Positions 4,408 to 33,960 of a DNA stretch of 36,488 nucleotides are shown piece after piece. The first letter of the stretch is position 1, and every line of letters begins with the position of its first letter. Source of the DNA: Deltaproteobacteria bacterium (GTDB lineage: Bacteria > Desulfobacterota > GWC2-55-46); the NCBI GenBank assembly GCA_016218095.1, contig JACREV010000086.1:1-36488 (forward strand), in the 5' to 3' direction. Under the pieces are notes generated by a model, which saw nothing but the letters and a program-made list of their open reading frames with translations, ran no database searches and had not been told where the DNA came from. The translations under genes were made by a program, and so were the position numbers.

Positions 4408-6396
4408 TCATTTACGGAGTACCCGCAAATCCCCCTGCCGTAACGTGAACCTTTCCTTATCGAAATATTCGAGTATCTCTATGGCGAGTTTTCTGCCGCA
4501 CCCGAGGATATCCCTGAAATCCGCGGCCTTTATCGGGCCCTTTGAGCTGATATGAGAGGTGAGCTTTTCGCGCGCAGTTTTCAGGTCATCGCCGGAAAGG
4601 TAACTCCCCTCCTTGAGCCTGACGATAGAGCCGTTCTTGACAAGGAAGCTCAGAACGCGCGCGATCTCATCCTTCCTGGACTTGAGCTTATCGAGGTCCT
4701 CTTTGTGGGGCGGCGAAAACGGGGTTCGGAAAAGCGCGAGTATCTCTCTCTCGGTCTCTGCGTCCTTCCCGGATGAACCCGGCGTATGGTTAAGGAGCGC
4801 AAGCGCTGAAGCGTCTCTCTTAAGCGCCTTTGAACAGACGAGCCCTTCGCACAATCCTTTCAGGAAAAGCCGCGCCGTGCGCGCCGGGAGCCCCGTCTCT
4901 TTTTTGAGGACAGAGAAGAGCGCGTCCTCGGATAAGCCCGTCTCCATAGGGCGCGCCGCGTGATGGGCAGAGACCGCCTCGACAACCCTTTTTTTCAGAC
5001 CCCCGGCCCGCCCCTTGTCAATAACGAAATCTCCGACTTCCTCATAGCCGCCTCCGAAGGCTTCCCTCAACCCCTCGCGAGAGAGGTTAAGCATGAGGCT
5101 GGCCGTCCCGGACTCTATCGCCACCCTCTCCCCCATGAGCGCGCTGAGCGCATCGTTGTCCGTCGGGCCGCAAGGCGCAAGCTTTCTTATCTTAGGCGCA
5201 AGCGTCGGGTCGAGATACGGGAATACGACGGTCCCGCCGCCGACGGTTGAGTTCCTCGAAGGGTCCCTTATTATGAACCTGTCCCCACGCAGCATCAGGA
5301 GCGGCTTTTTAAGGACGAGCCTTCCGAATGCCTTTCGGTCGCTTGCTGCGGTGAGGCGGATGACCGCGAGGGTCTCGTCCGTCAGGTGGTGGACCTTTAC
5401 GATGGAGCGGTCTTTTAAGGGTACTTTAGACTTGGTATCACCAAGGAACTCGAATGCGCAGTCGACGACAAGGCTTTCTTTGGCCCTGTCGATAAAGGGC
5501 TTAAGTGAAGCAGAGCAGAGGAGCGCGCCCCTCTCCATCTCCTTGTGGTTGAGCCCCGAGATATTGAGCGCCGCCCTCTCGCCTCTTGACGCCGCATCCG
5601 CGTCGATGTGCATCGACTGTATGCCGCGCACCTTTACGGATGCGCCGGATGGAAAAGACAGCGCCTCATCCCCCTTTTTGATGGAGCCGGAGGCGACGGT
5701 CCCTGTGACGACCGTACCGAATCCTTTTATCGCGAATGACCTGTCCACCGGGAGCCGGAAAAACGGCCCGCTCGCCGACCCTTCGGTCTTGACGACCCTT
5801 GCGCTTATGAGGGATTTAAGGGCTTCCATCCCGTCGCCTGTGACAGTCGAAACGGCGATGAGAGGCGCGTCTTCGAGCGCGGTCCCTCTTACGAGCGCTG
5901 AGACGTCTTTCCTTACCTCCTCTACCCTCTCGCCCGTCACGAGGTCGCATTTTGTGATTACTATTATGCCGTCCCGCACCCCGAGGAGCCGGACGATATC
6001 GAGGTGCTCCCTCGTCTGCGGCATGACGCCGTCGTCTGCCGCGACTACGAAGAGTACGAAGTCTATGCCCGTCACGCCGGCGAGCATGTTCCTTATGAAA
6101 CGCTCGTGGCCAGGGACGTCGACTATCGCGGCCCTGCGCTTCTCGCCATTGTGGGTGATATCCATATGGGCGAAGCCAAGGTCGATGGTGAGCCCGCGCC
6201 TCTTTTCTTCGATGAGCCTGTCGGTATCCATGCCGGTCAAGGCCTTCACGAGAGAGGTCTTGCCGTGGTCGATGTGGCCTGCTGTCCCGATTATCGCGGT
6301 CCGCTTCGGCAAACGCGCCCCTTTAAAGAAGGATTGAAGCAATTTTTCGAAATACAAGATAAAATATCCCTTATAGGGGGGTTTGTCCAGAGGCAT
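4408..6396 (-). CDS. selB: selenocysteine-specific translation elongation factor SelB
   Basis: G-domain motifs [11 protein letters not shown] / DVPGHERF / ITKCD, followed by EF-Tu-like domains and a long C-terminal winged-helix region. The ATG at 6396 gives an unusual 28-aa leader with no SD. A TTG at 6312 ([13 protein letters not shown]...) preceded by AAAGGGG is the more likely start. Confidence 0.9.
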
Positions 6397-6402
6397 TTTT
6401 TG

Positions 6403-6431
6403 TTTTCATAATCTGGCCCCTGTGATATAAT
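6403..6431 (+). promoter_or_regulatory. candidate extended -10 promoter for the hydrogenase genes
   Basis: TGATATAAT (TGn + TATAAT, 6423-6431), with a weak -35 TTTTCA at 6403-6408 and a 17-nt spacer, about 50 nt upstream of the small-subunit ATG. Confidence 0.35.
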
Positions 6432-6481
6432 TCTCAAGTAATCTTAAGCACTTAGCATTTTCAAGAGAGGTTTGGTCCGTT

Positions 6482-7240
6482 ATGGAAGAAAAGGAACTCC
6501 CGAGGCTCGCGTTCTTCTCCTTCACCTGCTGTGAAGGGTGCCAGCTCGCGGTATTGAGTTGCGAGGACGAGCTCCCGGACATATTGAGCCTTGTGAAGAT
6601 AGTCAACTTCAGGGAGGCGATAGACCAGAAGTCCGACGACTACGACATCGCCTTTGTCGAGGGGTCGATTACGAGGAAGGAAGAGGTCAGGAAGCTAAAG
6701 AAGATCCGGAAGCACGCCAAGATTGTGGTCGCCTTAGGCGCGTGCTCCTCTACTGGCGGCCTCAACTGTCTCAAGAACCGCTTTACCATGGATGAGGTAA
6801 AACGCGAGGTCTACGGCAAGGACGCCGGAAAGTCCGAGCGGTTCGACACCCTTCCCACCCGCGCCATAGACGAGATAATCCCGGTAGACTACTACCTCCA
6901 CGGCTGTCCTATCTCGAAAAAGGAATTCCTGCACTTGACCACATCGCTCCTCCTCGGAAAGAGGCCCGACATACCTAACCACCCGGTCTGCGTGGAGTGC
7001 AAGATGGCAGGGAACATCTGCGTGTTTGAGAAAGGGATGACCTGCGTGGGGCCGATAACGCGCGCGGGTTGCGAGGCGATATGCGTCACCTACGGGGCGA
7101 TATGCTGGGGGTGCAGGGGGCTTGTTGACAACCCCAACGCAGACGCCCACGCCGAGACCTTGAAGAGGCACGGACTTACGGTTGAGTCCGTCATGAGGAA
7201 GTTCAGCCTCTACGGGGCCTGCAAGACGCATAAGTGCTGA
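6482..7240 (+). CDS. [NiFe] hydrogenase small subunit, cytoplasmic group-3-like (delta/MvhG/HoxY-like)
   Basis: Proximal-cluster motifs CCEGC, GACSSTGG, HGCP. Cys-rich C-terminus (CVECK..C..C..CEAIC..CWGC) for further FeS clusters. No Tat signal. Confidence 0.85.
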   Translation: MEEKELPRLAFFSFTCCEGCQLAVLSCEDELPDILSLVKIVNFREAIDQKSDDYDIAFVEGSITRKEEVRKLKKIRKHAKIVVALGACSSTGGLNCLKNRFTMDEVKREVYGKDAGKSERFDTLPTRAIDEIIPVDYYLHGCPISKKEFLHLTTSLLLGKRPDIPNHPVCVECKMAGNICVFEKGMTCVGPITRAGCEAICVTYGAICWGCRGLVDNPNADAHAETLKRHGLTVESVMRKFSLYGACKTHKC

Positions 7241-7296
7241 GGCACCCAAGCCCTCCCCCTTTAAAAGGGGTAAAAAAGCAAAAAGGTTTGAGGATA

Positions 7297-8583
7297 ATGA
7301 AGAAAGACCTGAACATAAAGATACACGAGATAACGAGGGTCGAGGGGCACGGCAACATCGTCATCGACGTGAAGAAGGGGAAGATAAAGGAGCTTAAGCT
7401 CGAGATCATCGAGTCCCCGCGCTTCTTCGAGGCGATGCTCCGTGGAAGGCGCTACGACGAGGCACAGCACATAATGTCCCGCATCTGCGGCATCTGCGCC
7501 GTCAGCCACACCTCGGCCTCGCTCAAAGCCATCGAATCAGCGATGGACATAAAGATCTCGAAGCAGGCGGAGCTTCTAAGGAAGCTCGCGTTTTACGGGG
7601 AGACGCTCCAGAGCCACATACTCCACCTCTTCTTCCTCGTCCTCCCTGACCTCGCGGGCGTAGGCTCGATTGTCCCGCTCCTCACCTCGCACCCTGATAT
7701 GGCGAGGACCGGGCTCGAGCTCAAGAGGCTCGCGAACGACATCTGCGCGACCGTCGGCGGCAGGCACATACACCCCATTTCGCTCTTCCCAGGAGGTGTC
7801 GTGCACACGCCTAAGCCGCAGGAGCTCAAAAGGCTCCGGGAGGCGCTCGAAGGGTCTTTCGAGGGGTTGGAGATGATGCTTGCATTCCTTAATGATCACC
7901 CGTTCCCGGAGTTCAGCTTGAAGCGCGAGTATATCTCTTTGAAGGACAGGGGCGAGTACGGGCTCTACAACGGAAACCCGGTATCCTCCGACAGTTACGC
8001 CTTCAAGCCCGAGAGCTACACGAGGAAGATAAAGGAGTATGTGGTCTCTCACTCCGCGGCAAAGCACGCAAAGACAGAGGGCACATTCATGGTCGGGGCG
8101 CTCGCCCGCGTCAACAACAGCTACAGGCAGTTGAGCCCGAGGGCGAAGGCCGCGGCGAAGAAGGCGAAGCTCACGGTCCCCTCTTACAACCCGTTCCTCA
8201 ACAACATGGCCCAGCTCATCGAGTGCTATCATTCGACCGAAGAATCCATCTCCCTCATTGAGAAGCTCCTCCTCATGGGCCCGAAACCCGAGCCCGTGAA
8301 AAAGCCGAAGGCCTGGGGGCGCGGCTTCGGGGTAGTCGAGGCCCCGAGGGGGACTCTGTACCACGAGTACAAGATCGATAAGGACGGGCTCATCGAGAAG
8401 GCGGTCTGCATCATACCGACGGCTCAGAACCTCCGCTCCATAGAAGACGATCTGCGCGCTCTGGTGCCCGGGCTCCTCGGCAGACCCAAGGCCGAGATAG
8501 CCCGCGCGGTAGAGACGCTTGTCCGCGCATATGACCCCTGCATATCATGCTCTACGCATATCATGGACGTGGAGTTCGCGTAA
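7297..8583 (+). CDS. [NiFe] hydrogenase large subunit (Cys, not Sec, at the C-terminal Ni ligand)
   Basis: N-terminal RICGICAVSH and C-terminal DPCISCSTH Ni-Fe ligand motifs. ATG 7297 is preceded by GAGGA. The listed 7234 start would begin inside a repeat hairpin. Confidence 0.9.
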   Translation: MKKDLNIKIHEITRVEGHGNIVIDVKKGKIKELKLEIIESPRFFEAMLRGRRYDEAQHIMSRICGICAVSHTSASLKAIESAMDIKISKQAELLRKLAFYGETLQSHILHLFFLVLPDLAGVGSIVPLLTSHPDMARTGLELKRLANDICATVGGRHIHPISLFPGGVVHTPKPQELKRLREALEGSFEGLEMMLAFLNDHPFPEFSLKREYISLKDRGEYGLYNGNPVSSDSYAFKPESYTRKIKEYVVSHSAAKHAKTEGTFMVGALARVNNSYRQLSPRAKAAAKKAKLTVPSYNPFLNNMAQLIECYHSTEESISLIEKLLLMGPKPEPVKKPKAWGRGFGVVEAPRGTLYHEYKIDKDGLIEKAVCIIPTAQNLRSIEDDLRALVPGLLGRPKAEIARAVETLVRAYDPCISCSTHIMDVEFA

Positions 8584-10648: not shown

Positions 10649-11410
10649 ATGAAACAAACCCCATTACCTTTTACCGCAGAAAAGAATTCCAAAAAACGCA
10701 TACAAGGTGGCGAAGCCACTACAAATGTACTGCTTTCAGCTTATACTGGAAGCAACGCAGATATATTTCCACATATATTATCATTGCATGTCCCTGCCGG
10801 TGCTCATATCGCTGATGTCACCTACGGCAGAGGAGTTTTCTGGCGCAATGTAAATTTGTCCAAATATGTACTCTACCCAACTGACATCTCACACGGCATT
10901 GATTGCCGTGCGTTGCCTTACAATGATGCTTCGCTTGATGTGGTCGTGCTTGACCCACCCTACATGGAAGGATTATTTCGTAATCAAATCCAGCATAAAG
11001 CTGGCGGAGGTTCTCATTCTGCTTTCCGCAATTATTACAGCAACGGCGATGAAGTTTCTTCGGGCGCAAAGTGGCACGCGGCAGTAACCGATTTATATTT
11101 CAAGGCAGGCTCAGAAGCTTACCGTGTTCTAAAGGATAATGGAGTTTTGATAGTTAAATGTCAGGATGAAGTTAGCGCAAATCGCCAATGCCTTACCCAT
11201 GTCGAGATTATTAACGAATATGAAAAAAATGGGTTCTATACTAAAGACCTATTTATCGTAGTACGCACAAACAGGCCTGTTATCACACGCTTAAAAAAAC
11301 AAGTACACGCAAGAAAAAACCACAGCTATTTTTTGGTTTTTATAAAGCTTTCGGTAGGGAAAAGTAGTTCTCGCTTCCGTTCGCGCACAAACTCTTCTAA
11401 AAGCAGATAA
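10649..11410 (+). CDS. DNA methyltransferase (amino-MTase, DPPY motif) of a type II R-M system
   Basis: AdoMet motif I-like [11 protein letters not shown], followed about 45 aa later by catalytic VVLDPPY. Low-GC gene, convergent with the C-R pair. Confidence 0.7.
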
Positions 11411-29821: not shown

Positions 29822-31177
29822 CTAAAACTCGAGTTGCAGCCTTGAAAAAACGAGGGTCTCGTTCCTGGTGGACTGATTTGCGGCGCCCAGGGCGACACTG
29901 TCCGGATGTCCCTTGCCCAGCATCGCATAATCGACTCCGCCCTCGATGCTCACGCTCTCCCAGAGCAGGTACTTGAGCTGGGCATAAAGATCGGTGCCGA
30001 TATACTTTTCAAAGCCCGGGTCCGCGGCCGTATGCGTATACCAGCCGGCCCCTACATAGCCTTCAAGCTTATCCATTATGGGAATGGCCGCGTTCGCCTG
30101 GATGGTAACCAGTCCGTTGCCGAGGTTCGTATTATCCGTGGCGTAACCGCCGCCGTCTATGTTTACGAAGCTCGTGTCAATGCCGGTGTCCGTGGGACCC
30201 TGCACGTTTAGCTTCCCGGTGTACCCCCAGTACCCCGTAGTGCCGACGATCGACATCGGGGTAATAAAGGAATCGGCGCTGTCCTTTGCGGCGTCATCGA
30301 AGTCGTTGTCCCCGCTGGCGTAGATGCCCAAGAGGCCGACCCTGACCGTCCTGACGGGGACTTTCACCTCAGCCTTGACGGCAAAGCCCGAGTTCTTCCT
30401 CTCCGTGGGATCCCCTCCGGACGCCGGGACCGTCCTTTCTCCCCAATTATATAAGACGAACGCGTTGAAGTCGGCTGACTCGAACTTTCCGCTGTACCTT
30501 ACGCCCGTGTAATACTCGTTTGTCGTGCTTGCGCCGGTCACGGAGTTGGCCGGCTTGGTGTTGTCATTCAGGGCATAGAAGGACGCCCCGAACCCGGCCT
30601 TTGTGTCGGCGTCAAAAAACCACTGGTCCACGTCGTCTGCCGGATGAGAGCTCTCCGAGCCTTCGTCCAGGTTTCCATGGGCCATGCGCACCTCCACGTC
30701 CGCGACCTTGCCGAGGAGCATGTATGTGAGGGGGTTGTAGTCCCAGTCGCCGCTGAAAAGCGTGTCCCCGAATTTATCCGACATCGGCACCAGCCCGGCC
30801 ACTATGGTAAAATCCGTGTGGTTCGGTATGGGGGCTGAGATATAACCATGCCTCAGGGCGACCGCCGGGTCACCGCTGGATGAGCCGTCCAGAGTGTATC
30901 TTGCGTTGGCGACATTTGAATTTATATGCCCGATATTGAGCTGGATGTGAGCCTTTAAGCCGCTGTCCCACTCGAAATCAAGCGTAGGCCTGAACCTGAG
31001 CCTGGATGCCTGAATATCATCGCCTTCCGTAAAAGCATCGTCCTTGCCTGCGTCCTGATAATATGAATTGACCCTGAATTGCCCATGCCAGGCGGTTTCA
31101 ACAGCATACGCATTTTCCAGCCCGGTAGCGTAAATCGCGCAGAAAAACAAGACAAACCAAAAAATCCGCTTCGACAT
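29822..31177 (-). CDS. outer-membrane beta-barrel (porin-like) protein
   Basis: Signal peptide MSKRIFWFVLFFCAIYATGLENAYA. Alternating amphipathic, Gly/Tyr/Asp-rich strands. C-terminal ...FSRLQLEF with a terminal Phe. First gene of the operon. Confidence 0.65.
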   Translation of the reverse strand: MSKRIFWFVLFFCAIYATGLENAYAVETAWHGQFRVNSYYQDAGKDDAFTEGDDIQASRLRFRPTLDFEWDSGLKAHIQLNIGHINSNVANARYTLDGSSSGDPAVALRHGYISAPIPNHTDFTIVAGLVPMSDKFGDTLFSGDWDYNPLTYMLLGKVADVEVRMAHGNLDEGSESSHPADDVDQWFFDADTKAGFGASFYALNDNTKPANSVTGASTTNEYYTGVRYSGKFESADFNAFVLYNWGERTVPASGGDPTERKNSGFAVKAEVKVPVRTVRVGLLGIYASGDNDFDDAAKDSADSFITPMSIVGTTGYWGYTGKLNVQGPTDTGIDTSFVNIDGGGYATDNTNLGNGLVTIQANAAIPIMDKLEGYVGAGWYTHTAADPGFEKYIGTDLYAQLKYLLWESVSIEGGVDYAMLGKGHPDSVALGAANQSTRNETLVFSRLQLEF

Positions 31178-31559: not shown

Positions 31560-31588
31560 ATCATATCCGTGTTCAACTGCACTGTCAA
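31560..31588 (-). promoter_or_regulatory. candidate sigma70-type promoter of the barrel/oxidoreductase operon, flanked by inverted repeats
   Basis: Minus strand: TTGACA (31588-31583), 17 nt, TATGAT (31565-31560). IR TGCAGTTG (31546-31553) / CAACTGCA (31574-31581) and IR GCACTG (31579-31584) / CAGTGC (31591-31596) overlap it. Confidence 0.45.
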
Positions 31589-31650
31589 TACAGTGCGCTA
31601 TTCATAAGGCTAACGGCATACCCGCGAAAAATCCGTTCCAGGAAAATAAA

Positions 31651-31686
31651 AAGGGTTTGGCGGAAAAGCCAAACCCTTTTTATTTT
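31651..31686 (-). terminator. bidirectional rho-independent terminator ending the methyltransferase/mini-protein transcript
   Basis: AAGGGTTTGGC (31651-31661) / GCCAAACCCTT (31668-31678), with T-runs on both strands. Confidence 0.6.
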
Positions 31687-31747
31687 AAAAATGACTATGA
31701 ATTCCCTAGACTTCCCCTCTCCCATCAAGGTGGAGGGGGGTTAAACA

Positions 31748-31882
31748 TCAGGATTGCCGGTGTGAAATAGTCCTGCCCGGCGTACAGGTCCCGTGCCAAA
31801 GAAAGGTCAAGAAGCGGCTTACGAGCCTGTCCGCAAGGCAGACAAACGCTAAAAAAAGAATCCCGCCGACCAGATACCACAT
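31748..31882 (-). CDS. 44-aa single-TM mini-protein, paralog B (not in the ORF track)
   Basis: Hand translation gives MWYLVGGILFLAFVCLADRLVSRFLTFLWHGTCTPGRTISHRQS*. AGAGG lies 6 nt before the ATG. Paralogous to 31911..32072 at both DNA and protein level. Confidence 0.45.
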   Translation of the reverse strand: MWYLVGGILFLAFVCLADRLVSRFLTFLWHGTCTPGRTISHRQS

Positions 31883-31910
31883 GCAAGACCTCTTTTCTTT
31901 TACGCCTTGG

Positions 31911-32072
31911 CTAAAATCCGCCTGACCCTCCGGCGTTATTCCGCGAAGGCTTTCCCGGCGTGCAGTTCCCGTACCAAAGCAGGTTGCAAAAGCGGCTCAC
32001 GAGCCTGCCAATCAGGTATACGAACGAAAAGACGAGAGCAACACCAAAAATCCCGCCGACCAGATAATCCAT
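31911..32072 (-). CDS. 53-aa single-TM mini-protein, paralog A
   Basis: MDYLVGGIFGVALVFSFVYLIGRLVSRFCNLLWYGNCTPGKPSRNNAGGSGGF*. GGAGGTG lies 3 nt before ATG 32072, and the gene starts 34 nt after the methyltransferase stop. The longer listed ORF (to 32183) would overlap the methyltransferase. Confidence 0.5.
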   Translation of the reverse strand: MDYLVGGIFGVALVFSFVYLIGRLVSRFCNLLWYGNCTPGKPSRNNAGGSGGF

Positions 32073-32106
32073 GCGCACCTCCGTCACGCCTTGCCTTAAA
32101 CTCTTC

Positions 32107-33717
32107 CTACTCGAAAAAGTTTTTCTGGGTCGTCGCCTTCTTTTCGACCTTCGCCTTTTTGAATGTAAGGCCGCCGCGCTCAAGGTCGGGGTATACGGCC
32201 TCCTCTGTCCCGTTCAGCAGTCCAGCTATCGTCAACAACTGGACCTTGGGGAAGCTCTTTCCTATCGGAGATTCGTAGTACCCCGTTCCGACCGCCTCCT
32301 CGCGCATGGGCCTTGTCGGCTCGGAGAGGGTAATAAAGAGCCCCATCTCCGCGCCCTCGCGCTCGACGACGCCTACGAGGTCGCGCACCATGGAAACGCT
32401 CACGTTCTCGCCGCCCTTGACCGAGACGACTATCTTCTTTGCGTGGCCGCCGTTCTTTTCGTCCTGAAAATAGATGAGCCCGTCTATGCCTGAGTCGGCC
32501 CCCTTCTTTTTGCCCTGATAAGGTTGCGCGTTAACGAGCGAGCACGCCCACCACTGGAACTGGTATTTGTCGCGGACCGCAAGGTCCCTTGCGCCGTCGA
32601 GGTCTTTAGGCGTGCCGTGCACCTCGAAAGTGATATCCGGGAACGCGTCACGGAGGCGCTTTTCGATGAGTGAGATTGCGAGGTGAGTGATGTCGATGCC
32701 TATCCATTGGCGGTTGAGTTTTTGGGCCGCATGGACGGCTGTGCCGCAACCGCAGAAGGGGTCAAGGACGATGTCGCCTTCTTCACTTGAAGACTTAATT
32801 ATACGCTCCAAGAGAGAAAGGGGTTTCTGCGTTGGGTAACCCAGAGTTTCCACATTCGAGCCGTGCAAATGCTCTATGTCGTCCCAATTATCTGAAATAG
32901 GTTGACCGTGCATTTCATCAAGAAAACGCTTCAACTGCGGCACAGCGCCCGGTTTTGATTGAACAATCAAACCATTGTCGTAAGCTTTTTGCATACGTTC
33001 TTTTGTCCACCGCCATACTCTTGTCACACCAAGAAATTCATAAGTCAAATTTGGTCTGTTTTTGTTTGGATTTGTTAAATCACCGAGCCTGTATTTGCGT
33101 CCATCCTCATTTGTAAAACGATAGAAATTTTCAACATACTCAGGATCATGCTCAGTATATACTTTGAAAAATTTAGCATTGTCAGTTTTAGCATATCGAA
33201 AGATTATATCCCTGCAATTTGGAAAATTAGAAGTAGTATGGCTTTTGGGCTGTGACCGTAGCCATGAAATCTCATTCCTGAAGTTCTCATTCCCGAACAC
33301 CCCGTCCAGGACAATCTTCAAATAATGGCTCGCCGTGGGGTCGCAGTGCAGATACAGACTCCCGGTGGGTTTAAGGACGCGGTGGAGCTCAAGGAGGCGG
33401 TTCGCCATCATTGTAAGGTACGCCATCATGTCGTTCTCGCCGAGAAAATGCCGGATGGCCCTTATCATCTCGGAGACGTTCGTGTTCCCCTGACGGAGTA
33501 TCTCGGTATACTCGCGCTGGGCCTGCTCGCCCCAGTGCCAGCTGTCCTCGAAGGCGGTTATCTGCGCGTCGGACTGGTGCCCCTTGGGCGACTTGAAAAG
33601 TATGTTGTAGTCGCGCTTGGAGTTGAAAGGCGGGTCGAGGTAGATGAGATCGACGCTTTCATCCGCTATGTGCTCGCGGAGGATGTCAAGGTTGTCGCCG
33701 AAATAGAGTCGGTTCAT
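32107..33717 (-). CDS. beta-class N6/N4 DNA methyltransferase fused to a C-terminal Mrr-like (PD-(D/E)xK) restriction-endonuclease domain
   Basis: Motif IV DLIYLDPPF near the N-terminus; motif I IVLDPFCGCGTAVHAAQKL after a variable region. C-terminal ~130 aa with GIDGLIYF...IVVSVKG (D...S-V-K) resembles the Mrr_cat nuclease core. Confidence 0.85.
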   Translation of the reverse strand: MNRLYFGDNLDILREHIADESVDLIYLDPPFNSKRDYNILFKSPKGHQSDAQITAFEDSWHWGEQAQREYTEILRQGNTNVSEMIRAIRHFLGENDMMAYLTMMANRLLELHRVLKPTGSLYLHCDPTASHYLKIVLDGVFGNENFRNEISWLRSQPKSHTTSNFPNCRDIIFRYAKTDNAKFFKVYTEHDPEYVENFYRFTNEDGRKYRLGDLTNPNKNRPNLTYEFLGVTRVWRWTKERMQKAYDNGLIVQSKPGAVPQLKRFLDEMHGQPISDNWDDIEHLHGSNVETLGYPTQKPLSLLERIIKSSSEEGDIVLDPFCGCGTAVHAAQKLNRQWIGIDITHLAISLIEKRLRDAFPDITFEVHGTPKDLDGARDLAVRDKYQFQWWACSLVNAQPYQGKKKGADSGIDGLIYFQDEKNGGHAKKIVVSVKGGENVSVSMVRDLVGVVEREGAEMGLFITLSEPTRPMREEAVGTGYYESPIGKSFPKVQLLTIAGLLNGTEEAVYPDLERGGLTFKKAKVEKKATTQKNFFE

Positions 33718-33779
33718 TAGAGGCCCTGCCCTCGTGCCGGGATTTGAGGGACATGATATCAGGAATGCGCAATGGTTTG

Positions 33780-33960
33780 CAACCTTCCTCCATCCCCCTC
33801 ACCCCCCCCTCTCCCACAAGGGGAGGGGGGGGAATGAAACCCCTCGCGGAAGCCCCCTCTATCCCCTCCCCCATCAAGGGAGGGATTTTAAAGAAGATAA
33901 GCTCCCCCCGTCCCTCTTTGGAAAAGATGGAAACAGCCCCCCTCAAACCCCTCAAAAATT
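33780..33960. repeat. cluster of family-B G/C-tract palindromic repeats in a divergent intergenic region
   Basis: CCCCTCTCCCACAAGGGGAGGGGGG (33806-33830), CCCTCCCCCATCAAGGGAGGG (about 33864-33884), and a degenerate CCCTCTTTGGAAAAGATGG. The listed ORFs here (33734..33988, 33744..34004, 33686..34045) are translations of the repeats. Confidence 0.65.

Follow-up and report, generated by a model that had tools for sequence, protein, structure and literature searches.

Tandem genes for predicted mini membrane proteins behind a methyltransferase-Mrr gene of a Deltaproteobacteria bacterium

Bacterial small membrane proteins, which are mostly missed by gene callers, comprise several described classes that can be compared with the locus presented here. 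AcrZ, KdpF, CydX and MgtS are proteins of 40-55 amino acids (aa) with one N-terminal transmembrane (TM) helix, and proteins of this type can be encoded away from their partners. The type I toxins (Hok/Gef, Ldr, Ibs, TisB, Fst) are likewise small single-TM peptides, often encoded as tandem duplicates that include the leaders, and their taxonomic spread is narrow and patchy. A third class is formed by the small TM effectors or partners for which PADLOC has models, and which adjoin restriction-modification-type genes with which they are probably co-transcribed. The subject of this analysis is a tandem pair of genes, ORF1 and ORF2 (ORF, open reading frame), in a contig of 36,488 nucleotides (nt) from a Deltaproteobacteria bacterium (JACREV010000086.1; the whole stretch is called the window). 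They follow a gene for a methyltransferase (MTase) fused to an Mrr-like domain, and a note made earlier on the same DNA had proposed that they encode membrane-disrupting toxins or effectors working with that nuclease-domain protein. The MTase-peptide 'system' that it proposed dissolved because a two-way check of co-occurrence was negative, and the locus is best read as that of ordinary orphan small proteins rather than as a defence or toxin system of a new kind. The reading favoured here, which is considered reasonably probable as a whole, is that of duplicated bitopic mini membrane proteins that would act as accessory or modulatory subunits, their adjacency to the MTase gene being incidental.

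The two genes, their family and their products

Re-reading of the coordinates confirmed that a 53-codon gene begins 34 nt after the MTase stop and that a 44-codon paralog follows the stop of the first gene after another 28 nt, each with a Shine-Dalgarno (SD) sequence of its own; the two peptide sequences previously given were exact. The earlier note had also described one of the genes as invisible in its list of ORFs. Both ORFs, however, fall below an ORF threshold of 60 aa. The features of the pair and of the gene that precedes it are the following.

33717..32107, minus strand: N6_N4_Mtase + Mrr_cat fusion ORF, 536 aa; stop TAG at 32109-32107
32082-32076, minus strand: SD sequence of mini gene 1, GGAGGTG; 5 nt between the GGAGG core and the ATG
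32072-31911, minus strand: mini gene 1 (ORF1), ATG at 32072-32070, stop TAG at 31913-31911; 53 aa, product MDYLVGGIFGVALVFSFVYLIGRLVSRFCNLLWYGNCTPGKPSRNNAGGSGGF, with an N-terminal TM helix containing GxxxG and then RLVSRF..LWYGxCTPG
31893-31889, minus strand: SD sequence of mini gene 2, AGAGG; 6 nt to the ATG
31882-31748, minus strand: mini gene 2 (ORF2), ATG at 31882-31880, stop TGA at 31750-31748; 44 aa, product MWYLVGGILFLAFVCLADRLVSRFLTFLWHGTCTPGRTISHRQS, whose TM helix lacks 4 residues (in-frame deletion) and whose tail has diverged
31741..32100, minus strand: tandem duplication, two units of ~184-190 nt, each consisting of 5' leader, SD sequence and ORF

The paralogy, shared motifs and common DNA blocks that had been noticed before were borne out by alignment. 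The ORF1 and ORF2 proteins have 24/41 identical residues (59%; BLASTP E 4e-14), and their DNA is 71-76% identical over 91 and 45 nt and contains a perfect block of 17-18 nt common to both copies, TATCTGGTCGGCGGGATT; the similarity is evidently far above chance. The copies differ by a 12-nt indel, which is in frame. The repeat extends about 25 nt into the 5' leader, where it reads TTTA[AG]G[GC]CAAGGCGT[GA]A, and a TTTA microhomology is found at the borders of the repeat units. Since the leader lies inside the repeat, the whole gene was duplicated together with its ribosome-binding region, apparently as a unit of ~185 nt (leader, SD sequence and ORF) copied head to tail.

A sensitive profile search with both peptides had been suggested as a check, the absence of homologs being what would speak against the genes. 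Exhaustive searching of 1.84 billion representative proteins by HMMER, with a profile built from the two sequences, brought up three further members, which have the layout and the motif of ORF1 and ORF2 and lie in unrelated contigs from metagenomes or metagenome-assembled genomes (MAGs).

P0122: 51 aa, E 7e-11; encoded at 372-527 on the plus strand of contig L009
P0123: 45 aa, E 1e-7; contig L001, from the groundwater Deltaproteobacteria MAG JACRNO010000023
P0125: 42 aa, E 6e-4

These homologs are 32-46% identical and are encoded by single chromosomal genes in different contigs, under protein-level constraint. P0123 was recovered independently by a DNA-pattern scan of the GTDB species genomes, in which it was the sole true locus. 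Among ~15 billion predicted proteins the searches recovered four family members only, none of them named; ORF1 is present in the protein collection (as P0001) and ORF2 is without an entry there, so that ORF2 and several homologs are absent or unnamed even in collections of this size. Neither the pair nor a five-member profile retrieved anything beyond the family itself in a word-indexed protein search. None of the five members has a match in Pfam or NCBIfam at E<=10, the PDB sequences contain no match to the family, and PADLOC gave 0 matches for the five peptides. PHROGs gave no significant match, those at E 0.04-0.5 covering the TM helix only and being disregarded; no family member was detected by two degenerate-pattern scans of the IMG/VR viral contigs or by tblastn of phage genomes and plasmids, and literature searches yielded nothing specific. 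The family is very rare, so far unnamed and undescribed, one more orphan small membrane protein of a well-known kind, and it adds an uncharacterized family to those that gene calling mostly overlooks.

Two other candidates were rejected. The 203-aa protein P0124 from the search of representative proteins was judged spurious, its sequence being repetitive and of low complexity. The only match of the pattern in metagenomes, at 162-263 on the plus strand of contig L002, was set aside as a chance match or a degraded remnant: the ORF has no TM helix, is preceded by a stop codon and lies within the 3' end of a gene for 447 aa that runs on the opposite strand. This 33-aa ORF carries LLVGRMVGRFLTFLWF, strikingly like the juxtamembrane motif of the family.

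That both ORFs are real genes, as the earlier note had argued from their duplication and conserved motifs, follows from the ratio of nonsynonymous to synonymous substitution (dN/dS), the codon-position bias, the SD sites and the three independent homologs. Over the 36 alignable core codons of the paralogs, the Nei-Gojobori dN/dS is 0.36, and many of the nucleotide differences between ORF1 and ORF2 are synonymous; the differences at codon positions 1/2/3 number 6/7/14, with a one-sided binomial p of 0.036 for the third-position excess. Pairwise comparison of the five family genes over 41 ungapped codons gave 174/127/260 differences at positions 1/2/3, which reads as a classical coding signature. 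An SD-like purine run is located 5-8 nt ahead of the start in 4/5 family genes, and the fifth gene, that of P0122, fits this spacing only if a downstream TTG is the true start. Despite the high divergence of their DNA, four independent loci have kept intact ORFs and SD sites. The folding energy of the mini-gene mRNA equals that of shuffled sequence (z 0.17), and the Rfam search gave only sub-threshold chance matches, none of which lies over the mini genes. The single further contig of the source organism (L003, 1833 nt) matches the window at 100% identity. Judging by these sequence criteria, ORF1 and ORF2 are genuine protein-coding paralogs for single-TM mini proteins.

The start called for P0122 is probably wrong. 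Its ATG directly abuts AGAGGAG, and the TTG two codons downstream has a proper SD spacing and brings M-A-F-I-I-G-G into register with the M-D-Y-L-V-G-G of the two window peptides.

In all five proteins, an N-terminus of 2-4 residues is followed by a hydrophobic helix of 17-21 residues. The maximal Kyte-Doolittle hydropathy is 2.3-2.6 across the five members (2.37 over residues 5-21 in ORF1), and with 2.3-2.4 over 17 residues in chains of 44-53 aa the mini proteins classify as small hydrophobic single-TM peptides. A GGxxG motif, of the GxxxG type, occurs in the helices of ORF1 and P0122. The best-conserved part of the alignment is not the hydrophobic helix but the juxtamembrane motif that follows it, [RK]-L-[VI]-[SG]-[RN]-F-x-[TN]-[FL]-[LFI]-[WL]-[YH]-G-[TN]-[CF]-x-[PG]-[GD] (in short form, R-L-V-S-R-F-x-x-F-L-W-Y-G-T-C), and the C-terminal tail is short, variable and polar. 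Ahead of the helix the five proteins carry a net charge of 0 or -1, and behind it one of +1 to +4, ORF1 having +4 after its TM segment. An Nout-Cin topology is predicted because of this net positive charge, according to the positive-inside rule, and would place the motif at the cytoplasmic face of the membrane. AlphaFold2 (AF2), run with the five-sequence alignment, modelled one continuous helix from residue 2 to residue 37 (mean pLDDT 72).

Relation to the MTase-Mrr gene

Only two relevant promoter-like sites were returned by a consensus scan of the minus strand, one ahead of the MTase gene (33782-33753) and the other ahead of the next operon (31588-31560), and no promoter-like or terminator-like site was predicted by the scan between the MTase gene and the mini genes. 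The sole strong terminator of this stretch is found 3' of ORF2.

33753..33782, minus strand: promoter-like site, TTGCAA-18-TATCAT (extended TG), which precedes the start of the MTase gene by 35 nt; a consensus match only
31643..31686, minus strand: intrinsic (bidirectional) terminator, arms 31643-31661 and 31668-31686

A terminator had been placed at 31651-31686 by the first reading of the DNA; it is real and lies inside the longer hairpin listed above, whose 19-nt arms are 100% complementary and precede a U run (folding z -4.3). The promoter-like site is the probable promoter of a three-gene transcript of MTase, ORF1 and ORF2. Because of the 34-nt gap, the lack of a predicted promoter or terminator within it and the presence of a strong terminator only after ORF2, ORF1 and ORF2 are probably co-transcribed with the MTase gene up to the 31643-31686 hairpin.

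Whether such an arrangement recurs can be judged from both sides. None of the three peptide homologs was near an MTase gene (0/3, with flanks of up to 6 kb), and their surroundings were as follows.

P0123 (L001): 63 nt behind an apparently co-oriented gene for a 227-aa secreted protein, between polA and yraN/rnhB
P0125: alone between the gene of a Liv-type ABC substrate-binding protein and a B12-binding radical-SAM gene
P0122 (L009): precedes a gene for a zinc-ribbon/GAF protein

On the MTase side, homologs are abundant, with >8000 matches below E 1e-50 at 66-85% identity, and they span Betaproteobacteria, Nitrospirota, Kapabacteria, Fermentibacter, Pacebacteria and others. For homologs with 72-85% identity, seven distinct contexts were inspected, in which the following was found 3' of the MTase gene.

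L004-7: phage integrase; a prophage-like island with CI repressor and resolvase
L008: contig end, 103 nt past the MTase gene
L011: a 188-aa gene without assigned function, 410 nt past the MTase gene
L012: convergent pmbA
L013-16: a 226-aa gene without assigned function and a phage CRI replication gene
L017: convergent nucleotidyltransferase gene
L018-20 (Humidesulfovibrio mexicanus): acyl-CoA dehydrogenase gene

A six-frame hidden Markov model (HMM) search with the family profile found no member in any inspected MTase locus, and no hydrophobic ORF of 25-90 aa was present within 700 nt downstream in any of the six contexts with >=585 nt of downstream sequence (0/6, with MTases of 72-84% identity; L004, L011, L012, L013, L017 and L018). 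Comparison of the window with the long MTase locus closest to it showed DNA similarity only at 32156-33671, a stretch within the MTase gene. Strain variants without the MTase were sought through the 451-aa porin-like protein encoded nearby; an exact-match look-up had nothing on record. Co-occurrence fails from the peptide side as well as from the MTase side, and a conserved functional association of the mini genes with the MTase-Mrr gene is not supported by the loci compared.

Possible functions of the mini proteins

In the favoured scenario, the peptides would be bitopic inner-membrane proteins inserted Nout-Cin, each with its helix packed against a larger membrane protein and with the aromatic and basic juxtamembrane motif anchoring or modulating this partner at the cytoplasmic interface. 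The pair would be transcribed from the MTase-Mrr promoter as far as the 31643-31686 terminator, and its adjacency to the MTase gene would be a lineage-specific accident that brought a widely dispersed, context-variable gene beside it. The functional part of this proposal, an accessory membrane protein mechanism, is held with moderate confidence and draws on analogy. It is favoured because conservation is strongest in a specific juxtamembrane motif and not in bulk hydrophobicity, and because the homologs are single chromosomal genes among housekeeping or metabolic genes. With fewer than ~60 aa, a single TM helix and a conserved segment, the mini proteins have the characteristics of small accessory membrane proteins, and they resemble AcrZ, KdpF, CydX and MgtS in length and in the position of their only helix, in their probable Nout-Cin topology, in a helix that runs into a conserved cytoplasmic juxtamembrane segment (in the AF2 model), and in being chromosomal genes with ordinary SD sites and nothing that points to toxicity. 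Unlike those families, to which they have no match in Pfam, NCBIfam or PDB, they are without a recognizable partner complex encoded alongside, and their neighbourhoods differ in all four loci. The juxtamembrane motif offers a handle for finding a binding partner.

Several points weigh against this proposal. The four loci share no gene, and the idea of an accessory subunit rests on analogy and on the pattern of conservation; as proteins of the AcrZ type can be encoded apart from their partners, the accessory class may still apply. The family consists of five genes, which limits the statistics. Co-transcription was deduced from consensus scans only, and six MTase contexts, out of >8000 homologs, were inspected. 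Finally, small hydrophobic tandem peptides are also typical of type I toxins.

The last point leads to the best-surviving alternative, which is nonetheless unlikely: ORF1 and ORF2 might be stand-alone type-I-toxin-like or selfish membrane peptides in the style of Hok/Gef, Ldr, Ibs or TisB, independent of the MTase and controlled by an RNA antitoxin that went undetected. Their size, their single TM helix with a polar tail that contains Cys, their tandem duplication including the leader and their patchy, rare distribution would all suit such peptides. However, no antisense-RNA signal, long structured 5' untranslated region or promoter of their own was predicted for the mini genes. The consensus scan of the plus strand found no promoter-like site at 31700-32300, which is weak evidence, and no convincing terminator; nor does a predicted promoter precede either mini ORF. 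The leaders measure no more than 28-34 nt, in a region that is not unusually structured (the z of 0.17 given above), and the five proteins have no sequence match to known toxins, including Pfam toxin families at E<=10. Their conservation, as described, is centred on the juxtamembrane motif, and homologs of 32-46% identity persist as constrained single chromosomal genes, one of which (P0123) appears to follow an ordinary secreted-protein gene in the same orientation, at a distance of 63 nt. The absence of these hallmarks lowers the toxin readings without excluding them.

The suggestion of the earlier note, an abortive-infection or addiction module in which the peptides would disrupt membranes as effectors or toxins alongside the MTase-Mrr fusion, is very improbable. 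Parts of it stood: the products are small, hydrophobic and single-TM, and the order of the genes is tight and operon-like, with a 34-nt gap, no intervening terminator, a terminator in common and a probable common transcript, a layout that they share with the small TM effectors of PADLOC systems; moreover, the closest MTase homologs reside in prophage-like islands. Membership in a system did not stand. The co-occurrence of the peptides with MTase-Mrr fusions, which had been put forward as a check, fails both ways: an MTase gene is near 0/3 peptide homologs, and the peptide or any small hydrophobic ORF is found in 0/6 MTase contexts. In contrast to the PADLOC effectors, the five peptides match no PADLOC model and the adjacency is not conserved; PHROGs gave no match either, the family was not found in viral contigs, phage genomes or plasmids, and the window itself is chromosomal core. 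In addition, a toxin that is constitutively co-transcribed from a good SD site without an antitoxin or a sensor domain would be expected to be self-lethal, and conservation centres on the juxtamembrane motif rather than on hydrophobicity in general. An operon-like position next to a mobile MTase-nuclease gene is, by itself, no sign of a defence or toxin module. A related scenario, recruitment of the pair in this lineage as membrane effectors or tethers of the MTase-Mrr protein in a lineage-specific three-gene defence or addiction operon, which would be of an uncatalogued kind, is a faint prospect; if true, the wider family would be a pool of small membrane peptides open to such co-option.

The two weakest alternatives can be dealt with briefly. 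A non-coding element (small RNA, leader/attenuator or a repeat of the REP type, for repetitive extragenic palindrome) with fortuitous ORFs, for which the lack of annotated homologs, the inclusion of the non-coding leader in the repeat and an adjoining REP-like palindrome could be invoked, is hardly credible in view of the third-codon-position excess, the dN/dS of 0.36, the in-frame 12-nt indel, the SD sites and intact ORFs of four independent diverged loci, and the lack of an Rfam match or of excess RNA structure; the possibility that the repeat is part of such an element, also raised at the outset, is rejected by this coding signature. Exported tandem peptides, such as leaderless two-peptide bacteriocin-like molecules or precursors of ribosomally synthesized and post-translationally modified peptides, are equally implausible despite tandem paralogs of ~45-50 aa, the GxxxG motif of ORF1 and the conserved Cys, as no transporter, immunity or modification genes lie nearby in the four loci, the homologs are single genes and the N-terminal 20 residues form a classical TM anchor followed by positive charges.

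The MTase-Mrr protein and the setting of the locus

In the MTase-Mrr protein, Pfam recognizes N6_N4_Mtase (E 1e-43) and, in the C-terminal part, Mrr_cat (E 2e-10) and NA-iREase1 (E 9e-10), and in PADLOC it matches only generic models of type II, type III and orphan MTases. Within the Mrr-like domain, at residues about 384-477, the 'inactive restriction endonuclease' family NA-iREase1 scores near Mrr_cat, and inspection by eye shows S-V-K (…KKIVVSVKGG…) where (E/Q)xK is expected, as well as a Q in the position of the acidic residue of helix 1 (FQWW). The 'nuclease' half may be catalytically dead and bind DNA instead. For a mobile MTase, identities of 66-85% across many phyla are unusually high. 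Midway through the gene, at 32950-33250, G+C falls sharply to 35% from about 56-60% in the flanks; the drop may mark a variable or target-recognition segment, or else a patch that has recombined. Elsewhere in the window, a 253-aa ORF at 10649-11410 on the plus strand matches N6_N4_Mtase in part (profile positions 2-106 of 221); it may encode a second DNA methyltransferase, truncated or divergent.

REP-like elements occur at four intergenic sites of the window, 1809-1832, 31714-31740, 33805-33832 and 33863-33889, with a consensus of about CCCCTCTCCC-N4-6-GGGAGAGGGG (14 pattern matches against 0.49 expected). The copy that follows the mini genes folds as a hairpin.

31714..31740, minus strand: G+C-rich REP-like palindrome, CCCCCCTCCACCTTGATGGGAGAGGGG, immediately 3' of the ORF2 stop

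The copies bracket the three-gene unit, two being located upstream of the MTase promoter and one straight after mini gene 2, and they may be either the borders of an inserted cassette or ordinary REPs. The element was not found in the peptide-homolog loci L001, L009 and L010. Translation of these elements gives rise to spurious ORFs of the 'PLSHKGRGG' type.

The window belongs to the ordinary chromosomal core of an anaerobic respirer. Its genes include those of SelB, of a NiFe(Se) hydrogenase, of a riboflavin (rib) operon and of a molybdopterin oxidoreductase of the Psr/Nrf type, which has a NarJ-like chaperone. At 4408-8583, the SelB gene adjoins the genes of the hydrogenase small and large subunits. 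The large subunit, a 449-aa ORF, matches NiFeSe_Hases in two stretches only, which could reflect an in-frame TGA (selenocysteine) that splits the gene in a mechanical ORF list. The Psr/Nrf-type operon is headed by the gene of a 451-aa protein with a signal peptide and a weak match to Alginate_exp, an outer-membrane beta-barrel family (29822-31177, minus strand). The promoter of this gene, at 31560-31588 on the minus strand, is near consensus (TTGACA-17-TATGAT, 11/12 matches), and a porin-like first gene is somewhat unusual in an oxidoreductase operon of this type.

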